A stretch of 33,319 bases of DNA from an uncultured Candidatus Saccharibacteria bacterium (GTDB lineage Bacteria > Patescibacteriota > Minisyncoccia > UBA6257 > Colwellbacteraceae): NCBI GenBank assembly GCA_964361435.1, contig CAYIAN010000001.1, positions 1-33,319 on the forward strand, in the 5' to 3' direction. The notes beneath the pieces were generated by a model. The model saw only the letters and a program-made list of their open reading frames with translations. It did not search any database and had not been told where the DNA came from. Both the position numbers and the translations under genes were made by a program. This document shows positions 5,033 through 15,866 of this stretch, in pieces. The stretch's first letter is position 1. The number at the start of each line of letters is the position of its first letter.

Positions 5033-5887
5033 TTATTTCACGAATGGATTGGAAGCACCTAATACTCCAAAGTGCACGTGACACCCAGTACTTCCGCGAG
5101 TGAACCCAGTGCTCCCCACATTTCCAATGTGTTCACCCTGTGAAACTTGTTCTCCGACCTCAACAATATTTCCCAAATTGTGCGCGTAAAGAGTGCGTGT
5201 GCCGTTGGGGTGACTTATAATAACGTACCCTCCGTACCCACTGTTATAATTGGCGGGATCGCCCACTCGCGTAACCGTCCCTTCAGCTGCTGCGTAAATT
5301 TCTGATCCGCAAGCCTTAGAAAAATCGACTGCGGGCATATACTTTGAATCATGTAAAATCCCCCAGTTTAACCCCCCATCCACCGGACGGATAAAGTATG
5401 CATTCTCCGCTACTGTGCCTATACTCTCTGTATTTTTTGTTATAACCCTGCCACTTTTCGAAACGGGTAATATGGCGAGTTCCTCTCCGGGACGGATCAA
5501 GCTACTACCCTTATCGTTTGCTTCTAAAATATCACCTACTGAGATGCCAAAGGTTGTGGCAATGCTCGATAGGGTATCTCCGTCTTCGACGGTATAAGTT
5601 AGAACATCTTCTTCCCCAACTCTGTCCTTTAAAGAGTCTCCCGTACCAGATAGAGAGCTTTTCTCAACCAACGCGAATCCAGCAAAATCAGCATAGGCAT
5701 CCGTATGGTCAATCTCCTCTACTGGTCCGGCATTACTTAATAAAGCACCGGCTTCTGAGTTTACAAGTAGATCTTCCTCTATTAACCGCGGGTCCGGGGA
5801 AGAGGCTGGAGTAGCCTGCCTAAAAAAGGCCAGATCGGTCATTAAGACTCCTAAAATAAGGATTACCGGTAGGGTCACACCGCGCAA
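5033..5887 (-). CDS. LysM domain-containing M23 family metallopeptidase (start uncertain)
   Basis: LysM: YTVEDGDTLSSIATTFGISVGDILEAN. M23: VISHPNGTRTLYAHN...GEHIGNVGSTGFTRGSTGCHVHFGV. The track ORF extends to 6223 but would overlap the uvrD start by 255 nt. In-frame TTG 5887, GTG 5878 or ATG 5842 lie just before or within the single TM (VTLPVILILGVLM). Confidence 0.8.
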   Translation of the reverse strand: MRGVTLPVILILGVLMTDLAFFRQATPASSPDPRLIEEDLLVNSEAGALLSNAGPVEEIDHTDAYADFAGFALVEKSSLSGTGDSLKDRVGEEDVLTYTVEDGDTLSSIATTFGISVGDILEANDKGSSLIRPGEELAILPVSKSGRVITKNTESIGTVAENAYFIRPVDGGLNWGILHDSKYMPAVDFSKACGSEIYAAAEGTVTRVGDPANYNSGYGGYVIISHPNGTRTLYAHNLGNIVEVGEQVSQGEHIGNVGSTGFTRGSTGCHVHFGVLGASNPFVK

Positions 5888-5968
5888 CCAGCTCGGTAAG
5901 TTTTGTGATATTCTACTAATAGTATAAGTAATAGTAATATCCTCCCCTAAGAAATCAAGCAAAAGACC

Positions 5969-7711
5969 ATGAATTTGAGTGATAGTCAAAAAGAGGCTGT
6001 ATGCCACGGTCAAGGCCCACTTTTGGTAACTGCTGGAGCTGGATCTGGGAAAACCCGCACTCTCACGGAACGTGTTATATACCTTATAAATTCCAAGGTG
6101 GATCCGGAGCGGATTGTGGCCATTACCTTCACCAATAAGGCGGCTGATGAGATGCGCAAGCGCATCCTTGAGGGGGTTCACCGCACTGGCAAAAAGAAAC
6201 TTCCCTATATTGGAACCTTCCACGCTTTCGGTGCACGCATTCTACGCAAAGAAGCCAAAAGCCTAACGCGCAATCACGGTTTTTCTATATTCGATGACGA
6301 TGATTCACTAAGAGTTATCAAAAAGTCGGTCAAATCTCTTGGGCTTCCAGAAAATATAAAAATCTCTTCTGCGCTTTTCCTTAAGGATATATCAAATGCA
6401 AAGATGGAACTCTTAACTTCCGACAGCTTGGAGTCTCCCGTTAGAGAAGTTTTTTTAGATTATGAAGTTCGACTTAAAGAACAAAATGCTTTCGACTTTG
6501 ATGATTTAATAACTAAAGTTGTCGAGCTTTTGTCCGCAAACCCCGTGAAGCTCAAAAAATATCAGGATCAATTTGACCATATTCTTGTAGATGAGTACCA
6601 AGACATCAACCACGCTCAATATGTTTTAATAAAACTACTCTCCAAAGAACATGGAAATTTGAATGTAGTGGGAGACGACCAACAATCAATCTACGCTTTC
6701 CGAGGAGCCAACATTAAAACTTTTCTGGATTTTGAAAGGGATTGGCCCGGAGCAAAAATCGTTCATTTAGGAGAAAACTATCGCTCAACTTCAAACATAG
6801 TGGGGGCTGCCGCCAAAGTTATTGAAAATAATCGTCTCCAGATCAGAAAAAAACTCTGGACCCAAAACCCCAAAGGAGCACCCGTGTGTGTCCTGGGTAC
6901 CTACTCCGCAGAAGAGGAGGCAGACTCAATAGCTTCAAAAATAATATCAAAGGGGTTTAGAGATTCCGCCATTTTGTATCGCACCAATGCCCAGTCCCGG
7001 GCTCTTGAGCAGGCTCTCAATTTCAATTCTATTCCATACGAAATGTATGGAGGCGTTAAATTTTATGATCGAAAGGAGATTAAAGACATTTTGGCACCCC
7101 TACGGTATGCCCTAAATCCCAAAGATCAGATTAGTAGGGAAAGGATTGAGAAATCATTCTTGAAAAAAATCGGCGAAAGATTAATCAAAGAGCTTCCAGC
7201 AATGGCTAAAACACTAGGCTTAATGGAGTTAACTGGATACATCCTCAAGACCACCGATTACTTTGAATATTTGGTAAAAAAGTTTGATAACGCACTGGAG
7301 CGAACAGAGAATGTGCGCGAGTTGATTAGTTTTGCCTCCGGGTTTGATTCTTTGGAAGAATTTATGGAGCGCGTTGCTCTCCTCAATGCCAACGACAGTA
7401 TCAATCGACTGGGCGAAAAAGATGCTCCGGTGAAGCTGATGACCATCCACCTCGCCAAAGGTCTTGAGTTCGATGACGTTTACATCGCGGGCGTAAATGA
7501 CGGAACGCTTCCTCACCATCGCTCATTTTTCAACGAAGAAGATATCGAGGAGGAGAGAAGATTAATGTACGTTGCGATGACCAGGGCCAAAGAGAATCTG
7601 ACCTTAAGCTTCCACTCGATAGCCTCTCGTTTCTTGTATGAAATGCCTCCCGAGTTGATCAGCTTCAAAAAGGCAGGGCAGTTTGAGGAAGACGCTATTT
7701 ACTTAGATTAA
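5969..7711 (+). CDS. uvrD: UvrD/PcrA/Rep-family SF1 DNA helicase (compact, 580 aa)
   Basis: Helicase motifs are present: AGAGSGKT (I), TFTNKAADEM (Ia), VDEYQD (II), VVGDDQQSIYAFRGA (III), ENYRS (IV), TIHLAKGLEFD (V) and RRLMYVAMTRAK (VI). Confidence 0.85.
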   Translation: MNLSDSQKEAVCHGQGPLLVTAGAGSGKTRTLTERVIYLINSKVDPERIVAITFTNKAADEMRKRILEGVHRTGKKKLPYIGTFHAFGARILRKEAKSLTRNHGFSIFDDDDSLRVIKKSVKSLGLPENIKISSALFLKDISNAKMELLTSDSLESPVREVFLDYEVRLKEQNAFDFDDLITKVVELLSANPVKLKKYQDQFDHILVDEYQDINHAQYVLIKLLSKEHGNLNVVGDDQQSIYAFRGANIKTFLDFERDWPGAKIVHLGENYRSTSNIVGAAAKVIENNRLQIRKKLWTQNPKGAPVCVLGTYSAEEEADSIASKIISKGFRDSAILYRTNAQSRALEQALNFNSIPYEMYGGVKFYDRKEIKDILAPLRYALNPKDQISRERIEKSFLKKIGERLIKELPAMAKTLGLMELTGYILKTTDYFEYLVKKFDNALERTENVRELISFASGFDSLEEFMERVALLNANDSINRLGEKDAPVKLMTIHLAKGLEFDDVYIAGVNDGTLPHHRSFFNEEDIEEERRLMYVAMTRAKENLTLSFHSIASRFLYEMPPELISFKKAGQFEEDAIYLD

Positions 7712-8727: not shown

Positions 8728-11592
8728 ATGTGGGATTCAAGAAAAAGGAATCTATTCAAAGCCCTAGCGGTGTTGGGTGTTTTTCTCATTGTGGGGGTGG
8801 CAAAAGTTAAGGCTATTGGGATTTTCGCGCTTGGCGGAATCGGTCTCGTGATCTCATCCATTTTTGGCTTAGACCTATTTGGTAATTTTATAGGAGGTTT
8901 GGTAGGCGAGGTCGCCGAAGGAATAGCCGGCTTACTAACCATTGTCATTCAAGTTCTGGGAAATGTTCTCTTCAGTGCCGTAACGGGATTTTTGGAGCTC
9001 TCTATGGAGCTCAATAGCTACATCCAGGACAGTCCTATCGTCCAGGATGGATTCTGGGTTGCGCTGACGGTAGCTAACTTGGGTCTGGTTGTGGGGATAC
9101 TAATCATTGCCATAGCTACTATGGTCAGAGCTGACTGGTTAGTAGAACCAAGAACTTCTATCCCCAAATTCATTGCGGCAGCACTTTTGATAAACTTTGG
9201 ACTTTTTATTGGTACTAACCTGCTCATTAAACCCGTTGATACTATTTCTCGGGTTATTTTTGAGGCGTCTAATATTGGGAGTAATAGTTTTGCGGGGATT
9301 TTCCGACCAAAGTTGGGCATAGACCTCCAGCTTAATGCTCAACTGAATATAGCTGATCTTACTCCAGAAGAGACTCCTTTGGCTGAGGGAATAATAAGTT
9401 ACTTTTTGCTAAGAGAAGATCAGTTAGCTCCAAAAATTGACGCAGAGTTGAGAAGCCGCGAAAAAAAGGAAGCAAATTTTTTTAATACTTCCTATGTGCC
9501 CATTGGGAGAACTCCTGATAATGAAATAATTTATGTTTCTGAGGATGCGCGCCGCGCCGTGAAAGAAGCGATCCTAAGGCATACCGATAAAATGCTTGCC
9601 GCTCATGGTGGGGAAGACCCAGGGGGTCCAGATCCTCTATTTATTGAACCAGGGGTGCTATACTTCGATGAAACATATCTTACCGAGGATGGCTATAAGA
9701 GTTTAATCGAACATGCTCTGGGAGCAGGCGATGCCCCATATAGTTATTACGCCGAGCCTGGCGCCCTAGATGCTCTCGTAACCTCTATTAACAACATTGT
9801 TAAGGGTGAGTTGGGTAAGACCAAAAATTTACCATCAAGCCAAGACCTCACCGGCAATACGGTTTCATCTGATGATACGATCAGTCAAGAAATAGGATTT
9901 GAGTGCACACTCTGGACGGGTACTGATTCTCAAAACTGCAAATATCTATTTAAAGTTGTGGGAAAGGCAATAAAAGAGCCTGAGGGCCTTAAAAAAGCGG
10001 CTGTGGTTCTATCGGAAGTGCTTTTCTATGCCTTGTTTGTTTTCCTCGGCGTATTCACGCTTCTAACGGTAGCTGTTCTCATGTTTATGAGGTACATCGC
10101 GCTCTCGATTTTGCTTATCCTTTTCCCATTTACTTGGTTAGGGTGGATATTCCCCAAAATAAGTGGTTTAGGGAATATATGGAAATCTTGGTGGACTGAA
10201 TTTATGAAATGGCTTTTGTTCGGTCCGATATCCTTATTCTTCGTATACCTCGCCGTTCAAGCTGCCTCATCCAGAGAAAAACTCATTCCCCTTAGTGTAG
10301 ACCGCATCGGAAAAGGGACGCTTGCCACTATCTCCGCGTCTATTGGAGATATGGCTGTGGTAATAGGGCTAATGATTGGAGGTGTAATTGTCGCGAAGAA
10401 AATGGGCGTTAAGGGAGCCGGTTTGTTCTACGGCGGGTTAACTAAGATGCGTAACAAGGTTGGTGCTCTAGCAAAGCGGGGAGCTCTAATGCCATTTAGC
10501 CCAATTGCTAAAAGATACAAATGGGGCAAAGAGAATATAAAAAGTGCTGCACGTGCTGGCTGGGCGGGTTGGAGAACTAGCGGAGATAGAACTAAAGGCG
10601 GTAGAAACCTACTGGATGCACTAGCTTCTTCTTCTAATCCATTAATGGCGGCGTGGGGCAGAAATAGACAAGGAAGGGCAGCTCGCGCAGAAGAGATTTT
10701 GCGAAAACACGACGAACGTAAGTTTATGTACAGAGATGAAGAGGGTAAACTCCAGCACACGCCTGGTGGGCAAAGAAGATCCCAGATGCTAAAGGGATTA
10801 AATGAAAAGGCTCTAAAGGAAAAGGCACGTTATGGGAAGACATCCGTAGGCACTCTAAGAGACATGGCTGCCCTGGCACAATCTTTACACGACGCCGGTT
10901 ATGATTGGGAAGCGCCATTTATGGAGTCAGCAGCAATACTTAGCGAAAATGGATATTACCTAGGGGGTGGTCTCCAGCAAATGGAGAATGAATTGAATGA
11001 AACTGGATTGGCTCCTACGGCCATGCAAGCCATAGCCAGGGGAGCAAGTCACGCCGATATCGTTACAGCTATGGACGATGAGTTTAGTAAGATAGGCACC
11101 CTCAAGACAGATCCTAAACTACTCCAAGATAAACCTCTTTTTGGCATGGATTCATATCAATGGGCATCGTATCAGGCTGCATACCTAGAATATATAACAA
11201 AGCATAGACCATCTGACCTAACAAAAACCGTTAATGCCGCGTCTGCCAACACTAGGATGAAGTTACAGGGCATTGCACAACAAGAGTTAGGGAGGTTTGA
11301 GACAAGCATTATGGGTGGGGGGTTTACTTTGGCTGGGGCTCCTATTCCGCTCGCTGATGTTCCCATTCCGACTACATCGGGTAGCATTCGATGGGGAGAC
11401 GCTGGCCCCCAACAGAAAGTAAAGTTTATGCAGGATGAGATAAATAATGGAACCCTAATGGGGCAACACATACAAAGGCTTATTGGTCAACAAGGAGTTA
11501 ATATGCCTATTAACGCTATATTAGACACGCTGGTAGGGCTTGATAGGGCAGCCCGCGCCGGTCTTGGATCATGGTTTATACCAACCCCATAA
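8728..11592 (+). CDS. Large polytopic membrane protein, VirB6/TrbL-like candidate, with a long C-terminal soluble domain
   Basis: 954 aa. A signal/TM N-terminus and a first TM bundle cover residues ~10-190. A ~230-aa hydrophilic loop with one Cys pair (FECTLWTGTDSQNC) covers ~197-423. A second TM bundle covers ~424-555, followed by a ~400-aa basic/helical tail. The call rests on topology and on position directly upstream of the PrgI and VirB4 genes. No sequence motif was recognised. Confidence 0.45.
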   Translation: MWDSRKRNLFKALAVLGVFLIVGVAKVKAIGIFALGGIGLVISSIFGLDLFGNFIGGLVGEVAEGIAGLLTIVIQVLGNVLFSAVTGFLELSMELNSYIQDSPIVQDGFWVALTVANLGLVVGILIIAIATMVRADWLVEPRTSIPKFIAAALLINFGLFIGTNLLIKPVDTISRVIFEASNIGSNSFAGIFRPKLGIDLQLNAQLNIADLTPEETPLAEGIISYFLLREDQLAPKIDAELRSREKKEANFFNTSYVPIGRTPDNEIIYVSEDARRAVKEAILRHTDKMLAAHGGEDPGGPDPLFIEPGVLYFDETYLTEDGYKSLIEHALGAGDAPYSYYAEPGALDALVTSINNIVKGELGKTKNLPSSQDLTGNTVSSDDTISQEIGFECTLWTGTDSQNCKYLFKVVGKAIKEPEGLKKAAVVLSEVLFYALFVFLGVFTLLTVAVLMFMRYIALSILLILFPFTWLGWIFPKISGLGNIWKSWWTEFMKWLLFGPISLFFVYLAVQAASSREKLIPLSVDRIGKGTLATISASIGDMAVVIGLMIGGVIVAKKMGVKGAGLFYGGLTKMRNKVGALAKRGALMPFSPIAKRYKWGKENIKSAARAGWAGWRTSGDRTKGGRNLLDALASSSNPLMAAWGRNRQGRAARAEEILRKHDERKFMYRDEEGKLQHTPGGQRRSQMLKGLNEKALKEKARYGKTSVGTLRDMAALAQSLHDAGYDWEAPFMESAAILSENGYYLGGGLQQMENELNETGLAPTAMQAIARGASHADIVTAMDDEFSKIGTLKTDPKLLQDKPLFGMDSYQWASYQAAYLEYITKHRPSDLTKTVNAASANTRMKLQGIAQQELGRFETSIMGGGFTLAGAPIPLADVPIPTTSGSIRWGDAGPQQKVKFMQDEINNGTLMGQHIQRLIGQQGVNMPINAILDTLVGLDRAARAGLGSWFIPTP

Positions 11593-11611: not shown

Positions 11612-12439
11612 ATGTTCGATAACGAAAAAATAAGTAGGAGAATGGACTCCATGACGGACATTATTAAGGATGCTTTTTTCTCTGAAGATAACCGACAACT
11701 TGTGATTTCTATTTGTGGAGATTACCACCTAAGTGACGAGCGCACTGCTGGTGTCGGGAGAAGTTTGGGATATCTTCTTTTAGGACTTATTTTCCCAAAA
11801 GATCTTCCATCTCAAATAGTCAAAGAAGCTAATATAGATCCCAGAATCGCCGCAGAGATAGCACAGGAGATAGATCACAAAATAATATTGCCTCCCTTAG
11901 CTATAGAATTAAACAAAGTCTACGGCTTCAAATTGGATATTGTAGACGTACCAAGGATGGTTCTCCAAACACAAGTCGAGCGGGTTACTGCCCCGACTAT
12001 CACCGAGGCAGAGCAAGTAACGCAAGTTGAACCTCCCCATCAAGACATTGCAACCGTACCTATTAAGTCCGTACCGGATCAAACTCAAGTAGCCCCTCTT
12101 GTTATGCACAAGCGTGTCTCCTCGGAACCTACCCCCATTCAAACGGGTGGTGGATATCCCAATGGTTTGGTGCGCCCCAGTTTTTATACTCCGGAAACTA
12201 GTAACCCCAATGTGGACGAATCTACTCCCGTAGCACGCCTCGAGATAGGGATTAATACTCCGAACGAAGAACCCCAGACCACTCGCGTGGGGAAAGAAAA
12301 AGCGCAGGTTGTCCACTACAGCGCCCCCGAAGTCGCTCCGGACCCATTCTCCGGGACACCAAAACCAACTTCCAAAGCAGAACCCAAGAAGAACATTAAC
12401 CCAGATAATGTGGTCAACCTAAAAGATTTGCCTCAATAA
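11612..12439 (+). CDS. Hypothetical protein: helical N-domain plus Pro/Thr/Gln/Val-rich disordered tail
   Basis: I chose ATG 11612 (MFDNEKISRR...), since the track extension 11540..11611 overlaps the previous gene. The N-terminal ~130 aa look globular (DAFFSEDNRQLVISICGDYHLSDERTAG...LLLGLIFPKDLPSQIVKEANIDPRIAAEIAQEIDHKI). The rest is low complexity (TAPTITEAEQVTQVEPPHQDIATVPIKSVPDQTQVAP...). The stop shares 1 nt with the next start. Confidence 0.5.
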   Translation: MFDNEKISRRMDSMTDIIKDAFFSEDNRQLVISICGDYHLSDERTAGVGRSLGYLLLGLIFPKDLPSQIVKEANIDPRIAAEIAQEIDHKIILPPLAIELNKVYGFKLDIVDVPRMVLQTQVERVTAPTITEAEQVTQVEPPHQDIATVPIKSVPDQTQVAPLVMHKRVSSEPTPIQTGGGYPNGLVRPSFYTPETSNPNVDESTPVARLEIGINTPNEEPQTTRVGKEKAQVVHYSAPEVAPDPFSGTPKPTSKAEPKKNINPDNVVNLKDLPQ

Positions 12440-12978
12440 TGCAGTTTCAAGTCCCTCAATTTATAGAAACTGAAGATAAGGTAGTTGGTCCCTTGAGCCT
12501 CCGTCAATTTGCATACATTGGAACAACTGTAGGCATATCCGCCATACTTCTTTTCGTATCAGAGTTGTGGTTCTGGGCCATTATGTCCATACCAATAATA
12601 GGAGCTGGTGGGGTATTGGCCTTTGGGAAAGTGAATGGCCGACCAATCTCCATATTCATAAAAGCGCTCTTTCAAAGTATCTGGGCTCCGAGCGTGTATA
12701 TCTTCCGCCCCAAGGAGCAGGCAAAACCCATCCCCCTCGGGAAGATCAAAACCGTTGAGCCCAAACCCCCAAAGGGTTCCTCTTTGCCCAAACCGGATTT
12801 CAAGGGAATTAAAAACCTATGGCAGCAGATCAATACATCCAAAAATGCCATTCCCAAAAGAGAAAAGGCCCTCCCGGCTCGAGCTCAAAGTTTTTCCCAG
12901 TTCAAAGAAAGGTTTGAGGCTGTACGCCAAATCACCGGGGAACGTGAGGTGGCAAGGCGCATAGATTACAGATCATAA
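12439..12978 (+). CDS. PrgI family protein (VirB3-like T4SS inner-membrane component)
   Basis: The N-terminus MQFQVPQFIETEDKVVGPLSLRQFAYIG, followed by two adjacent TM helices, is the hallmark of PrgI-family proteins of Gram-positive conjugation systems. It sits immediately upstream of the VirB4-type ATPase. Confidence 0.7.
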   Translation: MQFQVPQFIETEDKVVGPLSLRQFAYIGTTVGISAILLFVSELWFWAIMSIPIIGAGGVLAFGKVNGRPISIFIKALFQSIWAPSVYIFRPKEQAKPIPLGKIKTVEPKPPKGSSLPKPDFKGIKNLWQQINTSKNAIPKREKALPARAQSFSQFKERFEAVRQITGEREVARRIDYRS

Positions 12979-13003: not shown

Positions 13004-15391
13004 ATGGCTGACCCCACTGGAGGACGTACACAAGATCTAATCCCCATAAAAACTATCCGCAATGGGATCGTATATCTCAAGGATGGTTCTTTGCGAAAGG
13101 TTATATTGGTAGATGGGACGAATTTTGACCTGAAATCGGAGGAGGAACAAGAGCTTATAATCAACGGTTACCGGGATCTACTCAATGCATTGGACTTTTC
13201 GCTCCAAATTCATGTTCACTCCAGAAAACTGAACGTGGAGGCATATCTGGAGAATCTCGCTAGCCATTTAGACAATGAGGATAATCCTCTAGTTAGGACT
13301 CAGATTGAAGAATACGTTAAGTTTGTTGATTCTTTCGTGGAAGAAAGCGCCATCGTGGCCAAGAGTTTTTTCGTAGTTGTACCGTATAATCCAACCGGAT
13401 TACCTAGCGCAGAAGATGCTGTCTCCTTCGTAGATAAACTTTTCAGAAAAAATAAGAAGGGCCCTTCTCCGCAACTAAACGAAGAGCTCGTTGGCGAAGA
13501 ACAAACTCACTCTGCTTACATTGAACAACTTCACCAGAGAGTAGAGCAAATTTTATCTAGCCTTCACAAAATCGGCTTAAGAGCCATCCCCTTAGAAGAT
13601 CCGGAACTGCTTGAACTTTTCTTTAACACATATAATCCCACAACTGTTGAAACCCGAGGCAAGGAAGTTGGGCAGAAGGGTGCAAAAGGAGCAGAGGGGG
13701 TAGACGAGCTTATCGCTCCATCGTCCCTGGAAGTTAAGCCGAGCTATTTGAAAATTGGCGAGAAGTATACAAAAACTCTATTTGTTTTTAACTACCCCCG
13801 TTACCTGACGACTGGCTGGCTTGCGCCCATCGTGAATCTTCCCGAAACAATGGACGTTTCTATGTTCATCCACCCCACAGATACTGGAGTCGTATTGCGC
13901 AACCTCCGCAAAAAAGTGGCTCAGATAGAGTCCCAAATTACGGATAACGCCCAAAGGGGGCTGGTACGCGATCCCTCTTTGGAAACCGCGCTAGCTGATG
14001 CAGAAAGTCTGCGCGATGGTCTTCTCCAATCGCAGGAAAGGTTTTTCGATACGGCTATATACATCACAATTTATGCAGATTCCGAGAAAGAGCTTGATCG
14101 TTTGGAAGCAGACATTATTAATACCCTGGATACAAAATTGATTAACGTCCGATCTGCTCAGTTTGAACACTTAAAAGGATTTGATTCGACCATGCCCATA
14201 GCCAAAGATTCTCTCGGCATCCATTCTCCTCTTAACTCAGGACCTGTTTCCTCCGCTTTTCCGTTTGTATCGTCCAGCCTGACCTCGGATGAGGGAGTGA
14301 TGCATGGGATCAATCTTCACAATAATTCTTTAATTATCTTTGACCGCTTCTCCCTGGAAAATGCAAATATGACTATCTTCGCTAAGGCCGGTTCTGGCAA
14401 GTCGTATGCGGCCAAGTTAGATATTCTCCGCAGCCTTATGCTCGGAACGGAAATTATAGTAATTGACCCGGAGGATGAATATATCCGCCTAGCCGAAGAG
14501 GTGGGTGGGGCAGTCTTTAAAATCTCTCTGGATTCGAGCAGCCACATTAATCCCTTTGATATTCCCATTATTCCCGAGGGGGAAAGCCCCAATGAGGTTC
14601 TGAAAAGTCATATAGTTAACTTAACTGGGCTGGTAAAGCTTATGTTGGGAAAAGTTACCCCGGAAGAAGAATCTCTTTTAGACCAAGCCATTACTCAAAC
14701 ATACGCTTCCAGAGACATAATCGCCGGACAAGATTTTTCCAAGAAAACTCCCCCTCTGCTTGAAGACTTGGAGTCGGTGCTCCGTGATACCGACGGCGCC
14801 AAAGGAATGGCTGAACGATTGTATCGGTTTACCAAAGGCAGTTACGCCGGCTTCACTAACCAGCCGACTAATGTAAATATAGAAAATCGCATTATTGTCT
14901 TTTCTATCAGGGATCTGGAAGAAGAGTTGCGCCCCATCGCCATGTATATCATTTTAAACTTCATCTGGAGCCTTATTCGGGCTGAACTAAAGAAACGCAT
15001 GATGGTTATTGATGAGGCTTGGCTGCTGATGAAAAATGAAGACAGTGCCTCTTTTCTGTACGGGTTAGCCAAGCGAGCGCGCAAATACTATCTCGGAATA
15101 ACCACCATCACCCAGGACGTAGAGGATTTCTTGGGATCGCCCTACGGCAGACCCATCATCACCAACTCTTCATTACAGCTTCTCCTTAAACAATCGCCCG
15201 CTGCTATAGACTTGGTGGGCAAGGCATTTGATCTCACTAATGTGGAACGTAGCTATCTCCTGGAGGCGGATGTGGGGCAGGGGCTCTTTATAGCCGGGTT
15301 AAAACGCGTGGCCATTAGGATAGTTCCCTCTTTCTTTGAGAATAAGCTAATTACAACCAATCCCGAAGAGCTCCTAGCGGAGAAAGGCTAG
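13004..15391 (+). CDS. virB4: VirB4/PrgJ/TrsE-type type IV secretion ATPase
   Basis: 795 aa. The N-terminal region is VirB4-like (IPIKTIRNGIVYLKDGSLRKVILVDGTNFDLKSEEEQ). Walker A is AKAGSGKSYAAK (14387..14404) and Walker B is MMVIDEAWLLM (from 14999). Downstream is KRARKYYLGITTITQDVEDF. Confidence 0.85.
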   Translation: MADPTGGRTQDLIPIKTIRNGIVYLKDGSLRKVILVDGTNFDLKSEEEQELIINGYRDLLNALDFSLQIHVHSRKLNVEAYLENLASHLDNEDNPLVRTQIEEYVKFVDSFVEESAIVAKSFFVVVPYNPTGLPSAEDAVSFVDKLFRKNKKGPSPQLNEELVGEEQTHSAYIEQLHQRVEQILSSLHKIGLRAIPLEDPELLELFFNTYNPTTVETRGKEVGQKGAKGAEGVDELIAPSSLEVKPSYLKIGEKYTKTLFVFNYPRYLTTGWLAPIVNLPETMDVSMFIHPTDTGVVLRNLRKKVAQIESQITDNAQRGLVRDPSLETALADAESLRDGLLQSQERFFDTAIYITIYADSEKELDRLEADIINTLDTKLINVRSAQFEHLKGFDSTMPIAKDSLGIHSPLNSGPVSSAFPFVSSSLTSDEGVMHGINLHNNSLIIFDRFSLENANMTIFAKAGSGKSYAAKLDILRSLMLGTEIIVIDPEDEYIRLAEEVGGAVFKISLDSSSHINPFDIPIIPEGESPNEVLKSHIVNLTGLVKLMLGKVTPEEESLLDQAITQTYASRDIIAGQDFSKKTPPLLEDLESVLRDTDGAKGMAERLYRFTKGSYAGFTNQPTNVNIENRIIVFSIRDLEEELRPIAMYIILNFIWSLIRAELKKRMMVIDEAWLLMKNEDSASFLYGLAKRARKYYLGITTITQDVEDFLGSPYGRPIITNSSLQLLLKQSPAAIDLVGKAFDLTNVERSYLLEADVGQGLFIAGLKRVAIRIVPSFFENKLITTNPEELLAEKG

Positions 15392-15392
15392 T

Positions 15393-15866
15393 ATGGGGGA
15401 CGGCGAGAAACCAATATCTATAGGCGAGGCTACTTTCATTGTTCTTTTGGTTTTACCAAGTGACATTTTGGAGATGGTTACTGGTCCTCTTTTGTTTTTG
15501 GGTCCTCTTTTTATATTTTTCGATATGGTTGTATGGTTTGGGGTTACCGTATGGATAACCATGAAGGGGGTTCATGTTCCAAAGTCCCTAGCTAAGTGGG
15601 GGGTGGCCAACCTCATTGAGCTCATCCCCATTGTGGAAATAGCGCCCATTAGAACTATTAACTTAATACTGTTAATACGCAAAGCCAATGCCTCCGCCGG
15701 GACTTCCCCACAAGGGAGCGTTGAGGGGGAAGAAGAGGAGGAGGAAGATGAGGGGGCGAATGATGACTTCGAACTTTGGGAGGAAGAGTTGGGGGTTACC
15801 CCGCCCGATAATGAAAGTGAAGGGGGTGCTGAAGAAAACGAAGAGTCGCTAGAGAGCGTCTCCTAA
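15393..15866 (+). CDS. Small integral membrane protein with a poly-acidic C-terminal tail
   Basis: 157 aa. It starts 1 nt after the VirB4 stop. It has about 3 TM helices, then GSVEGEEEEEEDEGANDDFELWEEELGV...GGAEENEESLESVS. No family was recognised. Confidence 0.55.
   Translation: MGDGEKPISIGEATFIVLLVLPSDILEMVTGPLLFLGPLFIFFDMVVWFGVTVWITMKGVHVPKSLAKWGVANLIELIPIVEIAPIRTINLILLIRKANASAGTSPQGSVEGEEEEEEDEGANDDFELWEEELGVTPPDNESEGGAEENEESLESVS

Follow-up and report, generated by a model that had tools for sequence, protein, structure and literature searches.

What is the large membrane protein encoded between ksgA and the genes for a type IV secretion system (T4SS) in this Patescibacterium of the class Paceibacteria? 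Within the window, that is, the whole 33,319-nucleotide stretch of DNA that was analyzed, its open reading frame (ORF) starts with ATG and continues for 954 codons without an internal stop. The frame is not a fusion artifact, since close relatives of the protein have a similar length (963 and 966 aa). We conclude, with a probability of roughly 0.82, that the gene encodes a VirB6-family subunit of the "extended VirB6" type, belonging to a chromosomal, origin-proximal T4SS. A very divergent VirB6, the channel/pilus-platform subunit, is part of the best explanation that homology, synteny, and distribution offer together. The gene and its neighbors in the block are as follows.

8728..11592, + strand: probable extended VirB6/TrbL-family gene, whole (954 aa; ORF and translation, family link, single copy in the genome)
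11612..12439, + strand: orf275, a fast-evolving syntenic partner with a helical N-domain and a Pro/Thr/Gln-rich tail; a 299-aa frame with a TTG start, which includes it, matched no Pfam or NCBIfam family
12439..12978, + strand: PrgI/VirB3-like protein (PF12666, E = 1.5e-7, 32.3 bits, cut-off 27)
13004..15391, + strand: VirB4 ATPase of the CD1110 (monoderm) type (NF045971, E = 1e-120, 404 bits, cut-off 325)
15393..15866, + strand: orf157, a small, fast-evolving membrane protein whose tail is acidic, recognized from its translation and synteny

The gene order PcrA-KsgA-(954-aa gene)-orf275-PrgI-VirB4-orf157-Jag-YidC-RnpA-DnaA was kept wholly or partly in 18 related contigs, and PrgI and VirB4 adjoined the homologues of the 954-aa protein in every related locus with enough flank, which bears out the co-occurrence anticipated by the original prediction. 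The module is flanked by KsgA, RnpA, YidC, DnaA, and DnaN and is located near dnaA. A chromosomal VirB4 of monoderm type (MPF_FATA-like, the type being assigned by the NF045971 model) near dnaA, ksgA, and rnpA is what characterizes the Patescibacteria-clade T4SS. Neither a relaxase nor a coupling protein was found among the 20 window ORFs scanned; two VirD4-like genes are present on other contigs of the genome, unlinked to the module. VirB2-like pilins are also encoded elsewhere, as an array with five PF18895 matches above the cut-off, four of them on contig C5 and one on contig C26, none adjoining virB4.

Assignment of the protein to a family could not be made directly. Scans of the 954-aa sequence returned no Pfam match at E ≤ 10 and no NCBIfam match, a construct from which the insert described below was deleted in silico likewise remained without a Pfam match, and the TrbL model PF04610 had zero matches across the whole source genome. 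Sequence-profile searches of the PDB with the whole family gave chance-level matches only, and a word-indexed profile search with the family added almost no sequences. The closest relative carried a precomputed "weak" PF19590 label, which hmmscan did not reproduce. The link instead runs through relatives from other genomes. Matches to PF04610 were found in 74 of 201 same-class genomes (above the curated cut-off in 32), each in a long ORF, and among the 12 top-matching ORFs, 11 proved directly homologous by tblastn to the 954-aa protein in both of its hydrophobic bundles. An HMM of the insert-bearing subfamily alone matched seven of the same 12 ORFs, again in both bundles, with E-values of 1.2e-7 to 1.6e-30 (computed with Z = 1.8e9). 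The TrbL matches of the orthologues map onto the C-terminal bundle (residues 421-558), and 10 of 129 representative relatives reached TrbL at E ≤ 0.01. Judged from sequence, membership in TrbL/VirB6 is thus transitive, through homology to proteins that pass the Pfam model, and the VirB6/TrbL-like identity proposed earlier is upheld by orthologues that lie above the TrbL cut-off and match the subfamily HMM. The family profile built here detected the family in 181 of the 201 genomes sampled from the class, against 74 for the Pfam model; most copies of the family are invisible to the latter. The gene is single-copy in the source genome and in nearly all others.

In structural comparisons, a Foldseek search of a viral library gave a sole match at E ≤ 1e-3, an 891-aa protein annotated as TrbL/VirB6 (E = 8.1e-4, probability 0.80, with a low TM-score of 0.11). 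The best PDB match of the full model (E = 0.045) was generic helical-repeat noise, and no solved VirB6 chain stood among the PDB matches listed for it. Alignment of the family profile with the single sequence of pCF10 PrgH by hhalign was not significant (probability 0.4%), a one-sequence template being too weak to inform.

The lack of a direct match to any curated family, together with the housekeeping genes around the block, could be taken to mean that the gene has no part in the T4SS and that its product is some unrelated protein, either a polytopic transporter or one for envelope biogenesis, which happens to be encoded near the origin with ksgA on one side and T4SS genes on the other. We consider this very improbable and largely refuted: orthologues strongly homologous to the 954-aa protein exceed the curated TrbL cut-off, linkage to PrgI/VirB4 holds in all loci with enough flank, and no transporter family was matched even at E = 10. 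An unrelated family without VirB4/PrgI neighbors, which the original prediction had named as grounds for giving up the assignment, is thus not what was found.

To place the conserved and variable parts, the protein was divided into the following segments.

8728..8814, + strand: signal-peptide-like N-terminus, residues 1-29, K/R-rich and hydrophobic, with V-K-A at 27-29, putatively cleaved
8815..9270, + strand: N-terminal hydrophobic helix bundle, residues 30-181 (AlphaFold2 helices 52-97, 103-132, and 141-181)
9124..9168, + strand: short K/R-rich loop, residues 133-147 (R134, K147), probably cytoplasmic by the positive-inside rule
9271..9987, + strand: clade-specific acidic helical insert, residues 182-420, probably extracytoplasmic, splitting the TrbL domain
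9904..9939, + strand: C393...C404 (CX10C), a likely disulfide
9988..10401, + strand: C-terminal hydrophobic bundle, residues 421-558 (AlphaFold2 helices 421-474, 484-519, and 531-558), core of the TrbL-like domain
10402..10827, + strand: Arg/Lys/Ala/Gly-rich basic linker, residues 559-700, net charge +22, helical in the AlphaFold2 model
10828..11589, + strand: folded helical tail domain, residues 701-954, with two beta-hairpin pairs, hypervariable and Cys-free

This layout confirms the architecture read from the translation in the original prediction. There are two hydrophobic bundles, an acidic insert of about 240 aa in which the only two Cys of the protein lie, a very basic linker, and a folded helical tail. 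Hydrophobic windows (Kyte-Doolittle, 19 residues, score ≥ 1.5) clustered at residues 6-170 and 420-562, and the net charge is -14 over residues 190-423 and +22 over 556-700. In the AlphaFold2 model (mean pLDDT 77.6), six to seven long helices were drawn, and the insert and the tail (600-946) were folded and mostly helical (pLDDT about 78-94). Hydropathy and model together depict a polytopic protein with at least five long hydrophobic helices, as in the TrbL/VirB6 family, so a lack of polytopic architecture, the other ground for rejection named in the original prediction, does not apply either. The first bundle, originally placed at about residues 10-190, holds as a hydrophobic region, but its first part, residues 1-29, resembles a signal peptide that can be cleaved off more than it does a helix of the bundle; such an N-terminus recurs in 105 of 134 relatives, with the alignment consensus M.D.KK..K.L.VLG....GI.KA.A.

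A comparison of conservation, which had been proposed as a check, set the regions clearly apart. Within the insert-bearing subfamily, the C-terminal bundle is the best-conserved part (54% mean identity), followed by the N-terminal bundle (42%), against 23% for the insert and 16% for the tail, the most variable region. Invariant residues are R455, P467, P476, W488, F492, F498, F505, and G552 in the C-terminal bundle and G108, N117, and F157 in the N-terminal one. The same contrast was seen along the locus. Where two genomes share 71-77% identity in VirB4, their versions of the 954-aa protein share 33-35%, orf275 is 31-39% identical at that same VirB4 identity, and orf157 is 28-35% identical at mid distance. 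Across the genomes compared, VirB4 identity stays at 71-89%. At the sequence level, variation centers on the insert, the tail, orf275, and orf157, while the motor is conserved.

The insert and the long tail had both been regarded as special features of this protein. As far as the alignments indicate, this holds for the insert, the only part special to this clade, and fails for the tail, which is the family norm. Most relatives lack the insert and have an inter-bundle stretch (query residues 169-424) of only about 47-120 aa, and the subfamily HMM aligns to them in two pieces, skipping the insert. Insert-bearing proteins form one clade with 100/100 support, and the phylogeny indicates that the insert arose once. 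Its profile is related neither to that of the tail nor to orf275, giving no sign of internal duplication or of capture from a neighbor, and it has no relative in Pfam (scanned to E 10) or in the PDB (chance-level matches in a profile search with the insert alone). It nevertheless keeps conserved GAPY and F-G-C motifs despite its 23% identity. The only two Cys of the protein, C393 and C404, lie here, in FECTLWTGTDSQNC; C393 is invariant in the subfamily, and 16 of 16 members carry two or four Cys, all inside the insert. The genome also encodes VKOR and a DsbA-like gene. The earlier reading of an external, disulfide-stabilized loop survives these observations, and the acidic insert is probably an extracytoplasmic domain, likely braced by a disulfide that would join C393 and C404.

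How the hydrophobic helices are arranged in the membrane was approached by analogy. Counting hydrophobic segments to fix the topology led to a parity conflict, with four segments separating an insert taken as "outside" from a linker that looks "inside," and was abandoned as decisive since the cryo-EM structure of R388 TrwI/VirB6 (Mace et al. 2022, PMC9259494) shows that such counts over-predict spans. R388 VirB6 has seven helices, of which only alpha1 and alpha2 are in the membrane, the bulk beyond alpha2 being outside it; only two of its five hydrophobic helices are membrane-embedded (PMC9259494), and hydrophobic helices can therefore not simply be counted as spans. In the same structure, VirB6 forms a pentameric cone and pilus platform (PMC9259494). 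In the 954-aa protein, the best candidates for two true membrane anchors are helices 108-132 and 148-168, which flank the sole strongly K/R-rich short loop (residues 133-147, 25 K/R per 100 aa across 59 relatives).

Drawing on the R388 structure and on models of PrgH/PrgF, we infer the following arrangement. Cleavage of the signal peptide would leave the N-terminus outside the cell, and helices at about 108-132 and 148-168 would anchor the protein in the membrane around the short basic cytoplasmic loop. The remaining long hydrophobic helices would associate with four further copies to build a pentameric cone over the VirB3/VirB4 motor, and this cone would serve as the start of the conduit and as the platform for assembly of the VirB2-like pilins, whose genes lie elsewhere in the genome. 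Placed like the hydrophilic helices alpha3-alpha4 of R388 VirB6, the insert would be a helical domain, stabilized by a disulfide, at the cone's outer face. That the 954-aa protein forms pentamers, contacts pilins, and has this disulfide is in each case presumed. The original prediction had named it the best candidate for the channel and specificity determinant of the module. Its divergence next to a well-conserved VirB4 gives indirect support to a role in specificity, while "channel" is better read as the pentameric cone and pilus platform known from R388.

The side of the membrane on which the tail lies is a closer question. The tail is predicted to be folded (pLDDT 80-93). Folded separately, it found no relative in the PDB by Foldseek (best E 0.11, generic helical-repeat noise), and a PDB profile search with the tail alone remained at chance level. 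Its last 10 residues are Pro/Thr/Ser/Gly-rich; a C-terminal basic/Gly plus aromatic motif was considered as a family feature and dropped because it was weakly enriched (10% vs 2%). We lean slightly toward a tail that is also extracytoplasmic and exposed to a host or partner. It contains no Cys in 22,968 residues from 59 relatives, against 0.13-0.67% in cytoplasmic neighbor proteins of the same genomes, and it diverges to 16% identity where VirB4 stays at 71-89%. The bulk of R388 VirB6 beyond alpha2 likewise lies outside the membrane. All three observations weigh against the alternative, a serious contender that we hold at a little under even odds, in which the VirB6 identity is the same but the C-terminal 400 residues are cytoplasmic, with the basic linker on the inner membrane face and the helical tail docking the VirB4 motor (its supposed partner, despite the tail being the fastest-evolving part), an unlinked coupling protein of VirD4-like type, or a substrate, for instance nucleic acid. 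The charge distribution speaks for this arrangement, since a stretch of 45 residues that follows the last hydrophobic helix is extremely basic (18.5 K/R vs 1.5 D/E per 100 aa over residues 557-600 family-wide, 59 relatives), which under the positive-inside rule points to the cytoplasm. AlphaFold2 also draws 421-474 as one continuous helix, permitting three crossings after an outside insert and hence a C-terminus inside. Because the module encodes no coupling protein, it would be plausible for the subunit to bring an adaptor of its own on the cytoplasmic side. A cytoplasmic location is also what drawings usually give to the C-terminus of Agrobacterium VirB6 and to the C-domain of TcpH, and reporter fusions (Jakubowski 2004) reportedly placed the former there.

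The low identity and variable lengths of the insert and tail, with no recognizable motif or fold relative, would also fit poorly constrained linkers that drift as neutral ballast, in which case their divergence would be uninformative on host contact. We find this improbable. Both regions are predicted to be folded (pLDDT about 80-93), GAPY and the Cys pair are kept in the insert throughout the clade, G806 in the tail is more than 90% conserved, and nearly all of about 130 long relatives inspected have kept the tail, in genomes of only 0.5-1.3 Mb. The strict exclusion of Cys from the tail furthermore argues for selection.

Both the secretion system and the extended VirB6 class are already known; some of the detail on this member of the class is new. 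Chromosomal T4SSs of the Patescibacteria clade have been published (Quinonero-Coronel et al. 2025, PMC12102498), including that of Southlakia epibionticum (Wang et al. 2023, as cited in PMC12102498). The locus described here shares with them the phylum, a chromosomal module with a monoderm-type VirB4 and adjoining PrgI/VirB3, the site by dnaA, ksgA, and rnpA, and arrays of VirB2-like pilin genes. It also resembles them in that no relaxase was found among the window ORFs scanned and in having unlinked VirD4-like genes as candidates for the coupling protein. However, that survey recovered 480 VirB6 homologues for 2,474 virB4 genes, about one in five, and attributed the missing ones to divergence (PMC12102498), whereas the present family occurs in 181 of 201 class genomes. 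Domain architecture, a clade-specific insert, and a Cys-free variable tail are not part of the survey.

Canonical VirB6 has about 300 aa, and the extended class includes the Rickettsiales VirB6 paralogues, TraG of the F plasmid, and Gram-positive MPF_FA proteins of 700-900 aa, among them TcpH and Orf15 (reviewed in PMC12857230). Extended VirB6 proteins thus exist as a class, as the original prediction had stated, but they are not limited to obligate intracellular bacteria, as it had also implied, given the size of the MPF_FA members (PMC12857230). The 954-aa protein has the layout of this class, a hydrophobic VirB6 core with large hydrophilic domains that are central and/or C-terminal (PMC12857230), here the insert (182-420) and the tail (559-954), for each of which a folded structure is predicted. 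It differs in that its insert and tail have no similarity to a curated family or solved structure, the named proteins being set beside it by description, and in that it is single-copy, whereas Rickettsiales carry multiple paralogues. With R388 TrwI and with pCF10 PrgH, a 266-aa protein modeled with the pilin PrgF (bioRxiv 10.64898/2025.12.18.695078), it shares long, mostly hydrophobic helices, a gene position ahead of VirB3/VirB4, and a genome-encoded pilin-type partner. The pCF10 system also has the same PrgH(VirB6)-PrgI-VirB4 gene order, but PrgH carries no large insert or tail.

A bolder reading, which we put forward as speculative and rather doubtful, is that the insert and tail are the host-facing end of the machine, making this a VirB6 with built-in diversifying surface modules. 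Monoderm systems are not known to have a VirB5 tip protein. If the reading were true, a disulfide-braced cap would sit on the cone and a Cys-free tail would be passed to the outside or even be cut off and delivered; these modules would set which host cell the epibiont plugs into, with the co-diverging orf275 and orf157 as partners, and VirB6, rather than pilins or adhesins, would be the host-range determinant of an essential feeding apparatus.

According to a review, no T4SS other than that of Patescibacteria has been shown to be essential for the cell that bears it, and the Patescibacteria T4SS is a suspected conduit through which epibionts exchange signals with their hosts or take up host molecules. 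In the largest class, the published VirB6 gap is filled by one extended-VirB6 family of high divergence, and experiments on host specificity and on the architecture of the machine can now be pointed to defined protein segments.

The target gene (8728-11592, + strand) is an intact open reading frame of 954 codons with an ATG start, and the existence of relatives of 963 and 966 aa indicates that its length is genuine. By hydropathy analysis, its hydrophobic segments fall within residues 6-170 and 420-562, C393 and C404 are its only cysteines, and its net charge is -14 over residues 190-423 and +22 over residues 556-700. An AlphaFold2 model made from a 25-sequence alignment (mean pLDDT 77.6) displayed long helices at residues 52-97, 103-132, 141-181, 421-474, 484-519, and 531-558, a helical insert (pLDDT mostly 78-94), and a helical tail (pLDDT 80-93) with two small beta-hairpin pairs. 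The layout proposed in the original prediction, namely, two hydrophobic bundles separated by an insert bearing a Cys pair and followed by a basic stretch and a helical tail, was thus accurate.

The gene lies in a type IV secretion system (T4SS) module with the following organization.

Features of the module and its surroundings (window positions)
5' of the target gene: PcrA and KsgA
5033-6223, - strand: protein with LysM and Peptidase_M23 domains, two genes upstream of the target gene
8728-11592, + strand: target, 954 aa
11612-12439, + strand: orf275, 275 aa, no known family, directly after the target; ATG start placed at 11612, scanned as a 299-aa TTG frame
After orf275: PrgI/VirB3-like protein (PF12666, E = 1.5e-7)
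After PrgI: VirB4, monoderm CD1110 type (NF045971, 404 bits; cut-off, 325)
15393-15866, + strand, after VirB4: orf157, membrane protein, 157 aa, acidic tail
3' of orf157: Jag, YidC, RnpA, DnaA, and DnaN

This locus is the chromosomal, origin-proximal T4SS of Patescibacteria described by Quinonero-Coronel et al. 2025 (PMC12102498), and the named relatives belong to Parcubacteria and Paceibacteria. The LysM and Peptidase_M23 gene keeps the same place in two other loci (L029 and L031); proteins of this type were counted as possible VirB1-type wall hydrolases in the same survey, their association with virB4 being mainly found in Paceibacteria (PMC12102498). Elsewhere in the genome (516 kb, 92.75% complete), five matches to the T4SS pilin family PF18895 all exceeded the curated cut-off, four forming an array on contig C5 (2511-5991) and one on C26 (2019-2204), and none adjoins virB4. 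Two VirD4-like coupling-protein homologues (C42:2963-3952 and C2:2833-3888; PF02534, E ~1e-11) are likewise unlinked to the module.

Pfam and NCBIfam scans of the target returned no match, for Pfam even at E = 10, and the TrbL model PF04610 matched nothing in its genome. Deleting the insert in silico yielded no family-model match either, and hhalign against a single pCF10 PrgH sequence, a one-sequence template, was not significant. A full phmmer scan recovered 4,119 representative relatives (E ≤ 0.001). In a sample of 201 genomes from the same class as the target, 74 carry PF04610 matches (32 above the curated cut-off), essentially one per genome and each within a long open reading frame. By tblastn, 11 of the 12 top PF04610-matching frames were homologous to the target in both bundles. 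A subfamily HMM built solely from 16 insert-bearing proteins, none with a TrbL match, recovered 7 of these 12 (E = 1.2e-7 to 1.6e-30, Z = 1.8e9), each match being split into two parts with HMM positions ~175-395 left out. The match coordinates set the TrbL domain at approximately residues 126-179 and 422-547 of the target, so that the insert sits within the domain, an interruption that helps to explain why curated models miss the protein. TrbL was also reached at E ≤ 0.01 by 10 of 129 representative relatives, and the sole Foldseek match in a viral library at E ≤ 1e-3 was an 891-aa protein annotated TrbL/VirB6.

Synteny agrees with this identity: wherever the flank allows (15 species-representative loci and 3 more contigs), a homologue of the target follows KsgA and precedes PrgI and VirB4, and the order in pCF10 is PrgH-PrgI-VirB4. 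A family profile found a copy in 181/201 class genomes (173/191 high-quality ones), with a single copy in the target's own. Four orthologous matches (genomes G142, G006, G123, and G022) contain one in-frame TAG, which could reflect sequencing error, a split gene, or recoding. The indirect case is strong, and on transitive homology and context we therefore file the target as a TrbL/VirB6-family member, as originally read, with no direct family-model match.

The insert was compared across relatives, which are mostly 600-800 aa long and align their residues ~210-390 to the second bundle of the target (~425-590). The stretch between bundles (target residues 169-424) spans ~47-120 aa in most of them versus ~223-287 aa in 14 close relatives. 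In a midpoint-rooted two-bundle tree of the query's best matches, these 14 formed one clade (100/100 support) nested among insert-less proteins, which fits a single acquisition of the insert. GAPY and F-G-C motifs are retained across the clade. All 16 insert-bearing proteins compared have two or four cysteines, every one inside the insert. The genome encodes an apparently intact VKOR (90.7 bits, contig C19) and a DsbA-like (Thioredoxin_4) match in two pieces with in-frame stops (one TAG, one TAA; C43:2597-3181), which could represent a disrupted gene or two frames. Across 59 relatives, the insert region is acidic (13.1 D/E versus 6.6 K/R per 100 aa), and the helix before it leaves loop 133-147, the only strongly basic short loop (25 K/R per 100 aa). 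Together, these features support well an extracytoplasmic, disulfide-braced domain, as first suggested, although we infer the bond itself. The insert had no relative in Pfam or PDB, and no relationship to the tail or orf275 was detected. In three relatives (P0011, P0016, and P0018), it holds an extra Gly/Ala-rich hydrophobic stretch of ~35-40 residues (subfamily alignment columns ~400-470), absent from the target, that could form an additional membrane hairpin.

Members of the family as a rule have a tail of 250-400 residues, beginning with a basic stretch (18.5 K/R versus 1.5 D/E per 100 aa) and continuing as a helical domain that folds in isolation with pLDDT 77. Foldseek, including the separate tail search called for originally, and PDB profile searches gave only noise. 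The proposed comparison of conservation, made within the insert clade, showed mean identities of 23% for the insert and 16% for the tail, the most variable region, versus 42% and 54% for the N- and C-bundles, respectively. Tails of 59 relatives contain no cysteine in 22,968 residues, where 145 would be expected at the genome's Cys frequency and ~30 at the VirB4 rate, the lowest among controls. Family-wide, the last 10-40 residues are rich in Pro/Thr/Ser/Gly (42% versus ~20%), and a minority carry a weakly enriched basic/Gly and aromatic cluster (e.g., GLGSWFIPTP, GGIAGFFFFDGS). One of 70 aligned relatives matched Peptidase_S74 (E = 3.5e-6; coiled-coil bias possible), an intramolecular chaperone of phage tail fibres; if real and within the tail, this match would favour a tail lying outside the cell.

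Of the seven long helices in R388 VirB6, five are hydrophobic, and only alpha1 and alpha2 span the membrane; the protein assembles into a five-copy cone that carries VirB5 and has been proposed to recruit VirB2 pilins and assemble them (PMC9259494). Pentamers of PrgH with the pilin PrgF were modelled confidently for pCF10 (bioRxiv 10.64898/2025.12.18.695078). A signal-peptide-like N-terminus in 105/134 relatives, followed directly by Cys in some, and the basic loop flanked by helices 108-132 and 148-168 fit the R388 plan. By this analogy, the N-terminus would be outside, these two helices would be the anchors, and the remainder of the protein would belong to an external pentameric cone, with the insert taking the position of the hydrophilic alpha3-alpha4. 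The plan thus places the tail outside, to which we assign a probability of roughly 55%. A cytoplasmic tail, at slightly under even odds, would suit the strongly basic segment next to the membrane and the one long helix that the model shows at residues 421-474, whereas the absence of Cys and the variability of the tail fit an outside location.

In comparisons with three moderately distant related genomes, identities were 33-35% for the target, 31-39% for orf275, and 28-35% for orf157, versus 71-77% for VirB4, 60-72% for PrgI, and mostly 56-84% for housekeeping neighbours. This contrast divides the module into a conserved motor and a fast-changing trio. Throughout the class, orf275 and orf157 keep their syntenic positions; both may be structural partners of the VirB6-like protein.

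The T4SS and its VirB6 homologues have already been published (PMC12102498), and extended VirB6 proteins, whose hydrophilic domains of unknown role lie centrally and near the C-terminus, form an established class (PMC12857230). According to proposals in reviews and a 2026 preprint, the machine and its pilus serve uptake from, or exchange with, the host. What is new is a family that occurs almost throughout this class and has mostly gone undetected, a once-acquired insert, putatively disulfide-bonded, dividing the TrbL domain, a hypervariable Cys-free tail, and the division of the module into conserved motor and variable parts.
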